Virus record (IMG/VR): IMGVR_UViG_2778261068_000002
Coordinates: 1 to 39,177 of that record
Reading direction: 5' to 3' (one strand)
DNA from: a virus
Lineage: Duplodnaviria; Heunggongvirae; Uroviricota; Caudoviricetes
Length of the DNA stretch: 39,177 nt
Part shown: positions 31,201-34,200 of the stretch, one piece after another
Layout: each line of letters begins with the position of its first letter
Position numbering within the stretch: position 1 is the first letter of the stretch
Position numbers: made by a program

Positions 31201-34200
31201 GTTGAGAATCGGTGATTCTGTCCATTGGTTTATTCCACCCATAGGTTTTACGCAGAATGGCAAGCAGCACTTTAAACTGTCGCTTGGTCAGATCTGCGCC
31301 TGAATAAGCCTCAAGCAGTATATTTGATAGTCTGGCGTAACCATCATCGAGATCTGCCACATTACGCTCCTGTTCGGCAAAGTTACCTCTGCCGAAGTTG
31401 AGTATTTTTGCTGTATTTGTCATAATGACTCCTGTGGATTGATCCAGTAATTCCCTCAGAATTGCATATCAATTTGCTTAGAGTCCCCGGCGGCCACCGG
31501 GGATTTTTTCTTTGTGATTCCATCAAGCGCATACTTAAAAGCCCTACTAATCGGACTGATGTCTGATGCCATTCCGAAAGCACACAAGACCGAAGCAATA
31601 AACCGCCAGTCCGTTCTGCTTATCTTCGATTCATGACAGCCAATCATCTTTGCCAGACCGCGCTGGGTAAGCGTTGACAGGTTGATGAGTAAATCTGTTT
31701 CTGCGCGATCAACGTCTCGCTGTGATAGTTTGCTGTAATTTGTTTGTTCCATTTCTTACTATTTCCATAGGTAAATAATCACTAATACTCATCTTTCGAT
31801 GAGTGCTTAATTAGTTACCGCGTTGTCGGCGGTGCAGATTGATAAAGAGCGGATCCGCTTATTAAGCGGCTTTGTGTTCCGGCGGGAACACGTCATCAAG
31901 ACTGACTTTTGCGCCTAACTTGTTTAGGCACGCAACAAGAGCACGGCATGTTTTAAGATCTGGGAAGCGACGACCTGATTCCCAATGTCCGATAGCTCCC
32001 TGTGTGCATCCAACTGCCTTAGCAAGGGTTGTTTGAGAGATATTCAGTGACTCTCGATATTTTCGTAGGTTGCTCATATGCCCTCCATAGTAACCATGAA
32101 ATAATAATACGATATGTACTTTTGCAATGCAAATAAAAAATACATCTTGTGCATGGATGGTTTTAGTACAGAGCGTAATAATAAGGATATGAAAATGAAA
32201 TGGTATGAACTGGCTAGATCCAGAATGAAAGAGCTCGGCATAACTCAAGAGAAGTTAGCTGAAGAGCTTGGTATGACGCAGGGTGGAATTGGTCACTGGT
32301 TGCGCGGATCTCGTCATCCATCTCTTGACGAGATTGGTGTGGTGTTTAAATACCTTGGTATTGATAACGTCTCATTCAACCACGACGGTACATTTTCACC
32401 TGTTGGCGAATACTCATCTGCCCCCGTTAAAAAACAATATGAGTACCCTGTTTTTTCTCATGTTCAGGCCGGGATGTTCTCGCCTGAGCTTAGAACCTTT
32501 ACCAAAGGTGATGCGGAGAGATGGGTAAGCACAACCAAAAAAGCCAGTGATTGTGCATTCTGGCTTGAGGTTGAAGGTAATTCCATGACCGCACCAACAG
32601 GCTACAAGCCAAGCTTTCCTGACGGGATGTTAATTCTGGTTGACCCTGAGCAGGCTGTCGAGCCAGGTGATTTCTGCATAGCCAGACTTGGGGGTGAGGA
32701 GTTTACCTTCAAGAAACTGATCAGGGATAGCGGTCAGGTGTTCCTACAGCCACTAAACCCACAATATCCAATGATCCCATGCAATGATAGCTGTTCCGTT
32801 GTGGGGAAAGTTATCGCCAGCCAGTGGCCCGAAGAGACATTTAGCTAACATCCCCCCCTAAAACACACAGCAATAACCCGACCTTAGCGTCGGGTTTTCT
32901 TTTTCCAAAATATAAACCCATAAAATACAAAATGTTATAAAAACCAATCGCATTTAGAACATTTTGTATCGACCAAATAAAGTACACATCGTACTATTTA
33001 GCCATCAGCAGGACGCTGGTAGCCAAACGGAACAGATTGGCAGGCTCTTTAACCTCGATGGGGCGCTGACAAAGCGCAAACAGATACCAAACGAGATGGG
33101 TTTGGCGGTGATGTGAATTGCTGCTGCAACGACAGCAACCAGAAGATCAGCATCTGGCACATCACCACCAAAGCCATTTCACATGAGGAAAACATCATGA
33201 CGGTAATCGTGTACGGAAAATCAACATTTGCAGGAAATGCCAAAACTCGCCGTCATGAGCGGCGCAGAAAGCTAGCTATCGAGCGTGATGCCATCTGCAA
33301 CATTATCGATTCGATCTTCGGTGCAGATAGTGAGGAACCTTTTCAGAAAGAACCGAGAAAGCGTTTAAATCTTTCTGAAAAAGCAATATCACTCAGCAAC
33401 ATTCGTAACCAAAATACCGATGAATGCAGTGGAAGTATTTGTCTTCCAAATGTAGCTCTTTACGCGGCAGGCTACAGGAAATCAAAACAACTGACAGCAA
33501 AGTGACTTGTGTTGGTCGCCAGAAAATGAAATTAGGCAGCAAACCACTTATTTGAGAGGAATTAATATGTCATCAATCCGCTTAACTACGAGAATGAAAG
33601 AGGAAATCGCTCGTAACGCTTTAATTAAGTCTGGGGTTTTCACTGAACTTAAAGAAGTAACAAAGTTAAATAACCAGCTTGCACTTGACGCCAGGGTTGT
33701 TGCGTTTGGCGGTAAAAAGAAAACTGAGGAAGTGGATCAGTTATCATCCAAGTTAATGGCTATAAGCGAAGAACTTAAAAAGCTGGGATGTTCATTTTAC
33801 TCATGCGATGCCCGTTCAACTTCAATTTATCTGACTGTATCTGGCAGAAGGGTTGGCTGGTATTCATATGGGAAAGACGGCAACGGCGAAGATATATTGC
33901 TCCCTACTCCGACCAAAGATAAATGCATGTTTAGTGCAGAACACGAAATAACAAAAAGGTTTGATGAAATCTGCGCATTGCAACAAAAACTTGAAGCCAA
34001 GAAAAAGGATATCGAATCAAATGTATGGGCTGCTTTGAACTCAGTCACAACAGTTAAGCGACTTATTGAAGTTTGGCCTGAAAGCAAAGAGTTGCTACCA
34101 AAAGAAGCAGATAAAGCAAGTGCAGCACTTCCTGCTTTACGGGTAGAAGATTTGAATAAGATGATTGGACTTCCTTCCGAGGCCGCATAATCGGCCTTTA

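Follow-up and report, generated by a model that had tools for sequence, protein, structure and literature searches.

The DNA considered here is a stretch of 39,177 nucleotides (hereafter the window), positions 1 to 39,177 of the IMG/VR virus record IMGVR_UViG_2778261068_000002 from the class Caudoviricetes, and the gene under study lies on its plus strand, in the PL operon, immediately after the gene for the antiterminator N (Table 1). The product is a member of the Nmad5 family (PF18757), a large group of phage proteins whose RefSeq name is "Nmad5 family putative nucleotide modification protein". A preliminary description of the window, made from the sequence alone, had placed an open reading frame (ORF) at exactly this position and on this strand and had credited it with 208 amino acids and no recognisable motif. 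The ORF stands, but the protein has 207 amino acids, since codon 208 is the stop codon (34188-34190), and it is covered over its full length by a known family profile.

The gene and its protein

The gene is preceded by the sequence GAGAGG with a 7-nt spacer to the ATG at 33567, which agrees with the strong ribosome-binding site noted previously. The longest ORF begins with a TTG codon at 33507 and would encode 227 amino acids; it was rejected as the gene because the homologues begin at M-S-S-I-R-L-T, a beginning shared across many genera, which places the real start at 33567. The protein is soluble and rich in charged residues, as had been suggested, with 23 lysines and 20 glutamates (21% combined), a grand average of hydropathy of -0.34, a mildly basic isoelectric point (pI) of 8.6, a maximum of 0.61 in a 19-residue Kyte-Doolittle window, and no transmembrane segment. 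The region had also been called richer in AT than its flanks, which holds against the recombination genes (40.7% GC in the gene, compared with 47.9% in the Rad52 gene and 48.1% in the SSB gene) but only slightly against N (43.0%); the GC content of the window is 49.9%.

The family match is strong, with an E-value of 9.5e-71 and 238.6 bits (the gathering cut-off of PF18757 is 27 bits), and aligns residues 4-203 to profile positions 1-206 of 206. PHROG 1965, a family of unknown function, is matched at an E-value of 1.2e-81, while NCBIfam has no match and the PADLOC-DB defence models give 0 families at E-values up to 1. By these sequence matches, membership in a catalogued family is certain, and the gene is already known and annotated rather than an orphan. 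A confident match to a characterised housekeeping family had been named earlier as the result that would refute the preliminary description; the match obtained is confident, but the family is not a characterised one, its name having come from neighbourhood inference elsewhere. The Nmad families are said to have been first described by Iyer et al. in 2013. No experimental report of a nucleotide- or DNA-modifying activity of Nmad5 was found in the literature searched, a literature search for PF18757 returned nothing, and the literature on phage mEp235 does not mention its copy, gp37. The "NMAD" domain of the DefensePredictor paper is irrelevant here, as it is Nmad2 and not Nmad5.

Proteins that are 92-98% identical are encoded by mEp235 (gp37, YP_007111613, "hypothetical protein"), Kapi1, HK542, and Stx1- and Stx2-converting phages, and close copies occur in 211 of 5426 complete E. 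coli genomes. The wider family is large: an exhaustive profile search (E up to 1e-3) recovered 2705 representatives at 50% identity clustering, and tblastn finds Nmad5 in 240 phage records of many lineages. The listed homologues mostly have 190-230 amino acids and consist of PF18757 alone, the shorter ones resembling fragments, and no domain fusion hinting at a function was found among them.

Two sets of loci were compared. The first consists of 80 sister loci from IMG/VR that encode 92-98% identical proteins (protein-level counts are given over 81 loci), and the second of 80 diverse IMG/VR loci that fall into 22 clusters at 70% identity. Among the sister prophages, the ratio of nonsynonymous to synonymous substitution rates (dN/dS) is ~0.27 for 59 distinct full-length alleles, and the gene is intact in 78/78 copies recovered from the 80 loci. 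The alleles differ mostly within residues 45-85, with hardly any change in the C-terminal third. This ORF is a real, functional gene under purifying selection.

A mosaic cassette in the PL operon

The genes and sites of the operon are listed in Table 1. As the preliminary description had it, the Nmad5 gene is the first after N, and it is followed by cIII, Kil and the recombination genes. The boxA-like sequence and the boxB hairpin upstream of N form what we take to be a P22-type nutL site.

Table 1. The Nmad5-family gene and associated features of the window
Feature	Position	Strand	Basis or remark
Nmad5-family coding sequence (PF18757 / PHROG 1965)	33567-34190	+	207 amino acids
Shine-Dalgarno sequence GAGAGG	33554-33559	+	sequence
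Most conserved family segment, codons 162-203	34049-34175	+	T-x-K-R-L-I-x-x-W-P-E-x-x-E-L-L-P, linker, L-P-x-x-x-V-x-x-L-N-x-x-I-G-L-P
Mosaic cassette	33502-34408	+	sole nucleotide block common to 80 sister prophages (gene, ribosome-binding site, terminator hairpins)
boxA-like sequence GCTCTTTA	33044-33051	+	sequence
boxB hairpin GCGCTGACAAAGCGC	33063-33077	+	sequence
N, P22-type antiterminator	33197-33505	+	PF25694, E 6.8e-40
Terminator-like hairpin 1, GAGGCCGCATAATCGGCCTT then T-run	34179-34208	+	consensus scan; overlaps stop codon
Terminator-like hairpin 2, GCCCTCCAGTGTGAGGGC then CTTTTTATAT	34325-34352	+	consensus scan
Terminator-like hairpin 3, AACGCTTCACTCGAGGCGTT then TTCGTTAT	34363-34392	+	consensus scan; just 5' of cIII
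cIII	34415-34549		Pfam
Kil	34534-34686		Pfam
Rad52/22-type annealase	34941-35648		Pfam
Single-stranded-DNA-binding protein (SSB)	35649-36164		by sequence
Abc2 (anti-RecBCD)	36178-36474		Pfam
DUF1382	36541-36732		Pfam
Integrase gene	end of window

In a consensus scan nothing resembling a terminator appeared between N and the Nmad5 gene, and PL therefore probably drives both genes on one transcript. Because this terminator-free run from N ends in three terminator-like hairpins 3' of the gene (scan matches at 34179-34198, 34325-34342 and 34363-34382), the gene is expected on the immediate-early PL transcript, ahead of the terminators that polymerase modified by N has to pass. By this arrangement of predicted sites the gene should be transcribed together with N and ahead of the delayed-early cIII, kil and recombination genes. 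The intergenic stretch ahead of cIII (34191-34414) is unusually structured: the RNA of 34150-34420 folds much more stably than its shuffled counterparts (z = -6.2), and a scan of 32000-36000 against Rfam gave nothing significant. A perfect stem of ~14 bp that lacks a U-tail lies at ~34229-34266 (GTGTATTCATTCCAACGAGTGAATACAC) and may be an RNase III site or a regulatory RNA.

The cassette, rather than the operon, is what the sister prophages share (Table 1). Its left junction falls at the stop codon of N in 45/80 sister loci, and its right junctions fall at 34220-34408, after terminator 1 or after terminators 2 and 3. The body of this N gene is shared by 10/80 sister loci and this recombination module by ~20, and an N-family protein is encoded upstream of the Nmad5 gene in 78/81. 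The genes found downstream vary, with Rad52 in 21 loci, Erf in 21, RecT in 14 + 9, YqaJ exonuclease in 8, Gam in 10, Abc2 in 47, and AAA_24 in 6. The Nmad5 gene is thus an independent cassette; the accessory slot that it occupies, bounded by N and cIII/kil, varies in content. Other genes of this slot include one for a 322-residue protein (17 loci; e.g. L049:9712-10677) and one for a 156-residue protein (10 loci; L036:8688-9155), both lacking a Pfam match, as well as DUF2528 in 7 sister loci (e.g. L052:6696-7061) and a Nun-like gene in mEp235.

The slot had been likened to the ral/sieB position of lambda, and this comparison is borne out by Ral itself, which is encoded between N and the Nmad5 gene in 8/81 sister loci (PF11058, E 6e-48). 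The window protein is not Ral, as it has no match to the Ral hidden Markov model (PF11058) at E-values up to 1, and it is not SieB, as it has no Pfam match to it, no transmembrane segment and no promoter-like site of its own. An antisense ORF of 133 amino acids (33827-34228) was considered as a sieB-like gene and rejected, since it matches no family. Substitution for Ral, Gam or Abc2 was likewise rejected: the gene replaces none of these, nor the recombinase, because it co-occurs with each of them and with recombinases of the Rad52, Erf and RecT types. Since Gam or Abc2 accompanies it in 57/81 sister loci, a redundant anti-RecBCD role is unlikely.

The slot also raises the idea of a prophage-expressed exclusion or defence gene of the SieB or Rex kind, which would protect the lysogen. 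Exclusion genes of lambda and P22 occupy the same slot, the gene resembles many cargo genes in its AT-richness and mosaic character, and P22 gp17 and a TIR-domain protein occur near some homologues. Such a role is nevertheless very improbable, given that the consensus scan shows no sigma-70-like promoter on the plus strand between cI and the gene, that repression in the lysogen should extend to the gene, which follows N immediately and in the same orientation, that the protein is soluble and matches no PADLOC model, and that strictly lytic phages, among them N4-like phages, Yuavirus and Dhillonvirus, commonly carry the family.

Several further features were observed in the window. A terminator-like hairpin at 32875-32896 ends the cI transcript, and two small plus-strand ORFs of the PL operon, at 34668-34841 (57 amino acids) and 36743-37024 (93 amino acids), have no Pfam family. 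The late/nin region encodes a homologue of the lipid A deacylase LpxR (24629-25588, plus strand), a calcineurin-like phosphoesterase (25800-26465, minus strand) and an MT-A70 family methyltransferase (see below), and the window also contains a match to the Cu/Zn superoxide dismutase (SodC) family.

The gene is dispensable

At least 47 records of Stx2a-converting phages match the Nmad5 gene only from codon 34-37 onward. In the Stx2a record examined, LC616043, the gene is split near codon 36, at a point corresponding to 33672/33673 of the window, by an insertion of 1311 bp (L175:1648-2958, where L175 is 10000-14500 of LC616043.1) that encodes HTH_Tnp_1 and rve transposase ORFs and is, by virtue of these ORFs, an IS3-family element. 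The same IS3 split is likely in the remainder of the at least 47 records. The split implies that the gene is dispensable in that lineage, and in Dhillonvirus an nmad5 deletion mutant has been made and plated (PMC11846954). The Nmad5 gene is dispensable, and its accessory nature follows from its presence in 211 of 5426 E. coli genomes and in only a subgroup of N4-like phages, from its insertion within structural modules, and from its disruption by an insertion sequence.

Conserved residues and predicted structure

Two sets of diverse members, one of 150 and one of 61 sequences, served to measure conservation. The residues conserved throughout the family are R5, A18, R43, GG48-49, G93, T162, L166, W170-P171-E172, P178, L196-N197 and G201, and all are present in the window protein. 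Across the 150 members the conserved positions are mostly Gly, Pro, Leu and Trp, and the polar ones are R5, R43, T162, E172, E175 and N197, a set that forms no obvious catalytic constellation as judged from the alignment.

An AlphaFold2 model, built with a 20-sequence alignment, has a mean predicted local distance difference test score (pLDDT) of 84.6 and a predicted template modelling score (pTM) of 0.68. It consists of three N-terminal helices (8-72), a small beta-sheet (~86-122) and a long helix (127-158), followed by short helices that hold T162-x-K-R-L166...W170-P-E172...E175-L-L-P178, a linker at 184-191 with pLDDT below 50, and the conserved tail L188-P...V193..L196-N197..I-G-L-P203. 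When the model was compared with BFVD by Foldseek, only Nmad5 proteins were found at E-values below 1e-3, with TM scores of up to 0.74. No relative by sequence or fold was found in the PDB, where the sequence query and a 61-sequence profile gave coiled-coil noise only.

Neighbourhoods in other phages

The settings in which Nmad5 is found differ widely. Its neighbours are replication genes in Athena1, ECO1230-10 and eiAU-183; in ZRG1 it has the terminase gene on one side and the portal gene on the other, and the Dhillonvirus copy is inserted in antisense orientation between head genes. Shigella phage B2, which is N4-like, has it in the replication module, after ThyX and before AAA/SSB genes; the idea that it is a core gene of N4-like phages was rejected in favour of a lineage-specific presence, given that only ~19 phage records are at least 60% identical to the B2 copy. 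About 30 of the 80 diverse loci, representing 4 Nmad5 clusters, show the order DUF2800 PD-(D/E)XK nuclease, Enc34-type ssDNA-binding protein, Nmad5 and DNA polymerase A. This cassette starts with a protein of ~300 amino acids lacking a Pfam match (loci L095-L174; e.g. L125:6069-7367, L126:7386-7931, L126:9018-11078). Other neighbour families of the diverse loci are N peptides, cI-like repressors, helicases, AAA_24, VapE, Ead/Ea22, P22 gp17 and one TIR protein.

The nuclease-SSB-polymerase order and the position in phage B2, together with the operon that the gene shares with a Rad52-type annealase and an SSB in the window and the mildly basic character of the protein, could point to an accessory factor of replication or recombination, such as a mediator or loader acting alongside SSB, annealase or polymerase on phage DNA as it replicates, which would serve the DNA metabolism of the phage and not be aimed at host functions. 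We consider this unlikely. The gene can be lost, being disrupted in Stx2a phages and deleted from a Dhillonvirus that still plated; the majority of lambdoid prophages and of N4-like phages lack it; it is independent of the recombinase type, with an SSB in only 22/81 sister loci; and it also occurs antisense within structural modules. The SSB-polymerase synteny, moreover, may reflect a single phage lineage.

A different setting is seen in the Yuavirus/M6-like Pseudomonas phages, where Nmad5 lies inside the thymidine-hypermodification/replication region, beside a thymidylate-synthase homologue (dUMP hydroxymethylase) and aGPT-Pplase1, a location within the M6-like thymidine-hypermodification cluster that is also reported in PMC9476957. 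This neighbourhood is evidently the origin of the family name, and among the contexts compared a link to base-modification genes is seen only here and, next to ThyX, in one N4-like group. The Pfam and RefSeq names imply a protein that takes part in modifying nucleotides or DNA bases, either as the enzyme or as an indispensable cofactor, and in addition to the M6/YuA-like neighbours such a role could draw on the position after ThyX in phage B2 and on the few invariant polar residues. It is nonetheless quite improbable. Hypermodified bases are not known from lambdoid coliphages. No thymidylate-synthase-like protein, 5-hydroxymethyldeoxyuridine (5-hmdU) kinase (5-HMUDK) or aGPT-Pplase is among the neighbour families listed for the 80 diverse loci (the top 25 of 42-43 families), nor among those listed for the window (again the top 25 of 42-43), in which the sole DNA-modifying gene seen encodes an MT-A70 methyltransferase (27899-28489, minus strand), ~5 kb away and in another operon. 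The protein is also not similar to any solved enzyme, and the steps described in the in-vitro reconstitution of the M6 pathway used gp51-gp55 and leave its Nmad5 neighbour unmentioned (PMC8989533).

Dhillonvirus nmad5 and escape from Tmn

The experimental data on an Nmad5 gene come from Dhillonvirus and the Tmn system. Two independent mutants that escape Tmn each carry a Lys-to-Glu substitution in nmad5, K296E in SM_S22 and K216E in SM_A8; reversion of the substitution restored sensitivity to Tmn and its engineered introduction gave escape (Yamashita et al. 2025, PMC11846954). In the same study deletion of nmad5 gave no escape, and cloning of the wild-type gene failed, apparently on account of toxicity (PMC11846954). 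Escape by the Lys-to-Glu change but not by deletion points to a gain of function.

The two positions differ in number since the SM_S22 coding sequence (PP627283.1, which is locus L014, 5005-6009, minus strand) is annotated 80 codons too long; the N-terminus of the family, M-R-L-T, is found at Met81. The overlong coding sequence runs into the scaffold gene, which is encoded on the other strand. K296 of SM_S22 directly precedes the invariant Leu of T-D-K-K-L-I-K-A-W-P-E and aligns with R165 of the window protein, and it therefore lies in the most conserved motif of the family. A gain-of-function missense change in a conserved surface, and in an early protein that is both dispensable and toxic, fits, short of proving, a binding protein at the interface of phage and host. 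A 2026 preprint describes T2 RIIB as a trigger of Tmn and as a component of the replisome that anchors it to the membrane, and mentions neither Nmad5 nor Dhillonvirus (PMC13001434).

Proposed role of the lambdoid protein

Our preferred reading, which we put forward as tentative and a little short of probable, is that the gene encodes an immediate-early, dispensable accessory protein that lacks catalytic activity and whose conserved binding partner belongs to DNA metabolism or immunity. A self-contained cassette of ribosome-binding site, gene and intrinsic terminators, inserted directly after N, would allow the protein to be made together with N from the immediate-early PL transcript. The protein would act by binding and not by catalysis, with a core of helices and beta-sheet, and its C-terminal motif (T-x-K-R-L...W-P-E...E-L-L-P, a flexible linker, and L-P...L-N..G-L-P) would contact a partner in the DNA metabolism of the host or the phage, a contact that might shape host takeover or the evasion of host immunity. 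What we infer is that the protein binds without catalysis, what kind of partner it has, and that it serves counter-defence or takeover. The host-takeover or exclusion functions that had been suggested from the position in lambda appear plausible.

Several points weigh against this proposal. The mechanism is drawn from context and from one study of a homologue that is, motifs aside, highly divergent. The small group of invariant polar residues (Asn, Thr and a pair each of Arg and Glu) could be an active site, and the lack of a match to a known fold is compatible with a new enzyme. Many independent contexts lie in replication modules (Enc34-type SSB/DNA polymerase A, ThyX, helicases) and would suit a replication accessory equally well. 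The terminators and the promoter context are consensus matches only, and a pI of 8.6 means that the protein is no DNA mimic like Ocr or Gam.

A bolder form of the proposal, which is possible but rather unlikely, is that Nmad5 is misnamed and is a widespread, non-enzymatic early protein that masks or inhibits a host sensor or effector by means of a C-terminal contact surface (T-x-K-[KR]-L...WPE / LN..GLP) that can be retargeted by single substitutions, as the Tmn-escape Lys-to-Glu allele of Dhillonvirus suggests. If this were true, the lambdoid copy would serve counter-defence and be expressed immediate-early along with N. Quite apart from this, the nucleotide-modification label finds no support in the lambdoid context and weak support across the family, and the name is probably misleading, although it has spread in RefSeq and at least one experimental paper has called Nmad5 "a DNA modification enzyme". 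The gene itself, being catalogued, is an ordinary find; the interest lies in the function of the family and in its misleading name. The lambdoid copy offers a convenient and easily manipulated entry to the function of a large family that is early, dispensable, unrelated to any PDB entry and linked to Tmn.

Comparison with known systems

The closest relatives of the window protein are its orthologues in mEp235, Kapi1 and HK542, which have the same length, a full-length single domain and the same position after N, and which share the N-terminal R-L-T...A..K.G and the C-terminal T-x-K-R-L...WPE...ELLP / LP...LN..GLP motifs. At the sequence level nothing separates the window protein from the Nmad5 family; what is absent, among the neighbour families listed here, is the thymidine-hypermodification context that gave the family its name.

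Dhillonvirus nmad5 (CDS6, coding sequence 6, of SM_S22 and CDS7 of SM_A8) shares the N- and C-terminal motifs and is, like the window gene, a non-essential accessory. It is highly divergent outside the motifs, however (36% identity over the C-terminal 97 residues), and has 253 amino acids, with a middle part larger by ~50 residues. Its gene is inserted in antisense orientation among the head genes of a lytic siphovirus, whereas the window copy is an early PL gene, and both the toxicity and the escape by missense change but not by deletion were reported for the Dhillonvirus protein.

Among the early proteins of lambda, the anti-restriction modulator Ral is the nearest counterpart in position and kind: it occupies the same slot between N and cIII and, like the window protein, is a small, soluble and dispensable early protein on a mosaic cassette. 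Ral has 66 amino acids and is unrelated in sequence, and the tandem arrangement of the two genes in 8 sister loci indicates that they are not alternatives. Lambda Gam and P22 Abc2 show no homology to the window protein, and Abc2 is already encoded in the window, but both are early PL-operon proteins that bind an enzyme of host DNA metabolism, and on our proposal the Nmad5 protein would work by a mechanism of this kind.

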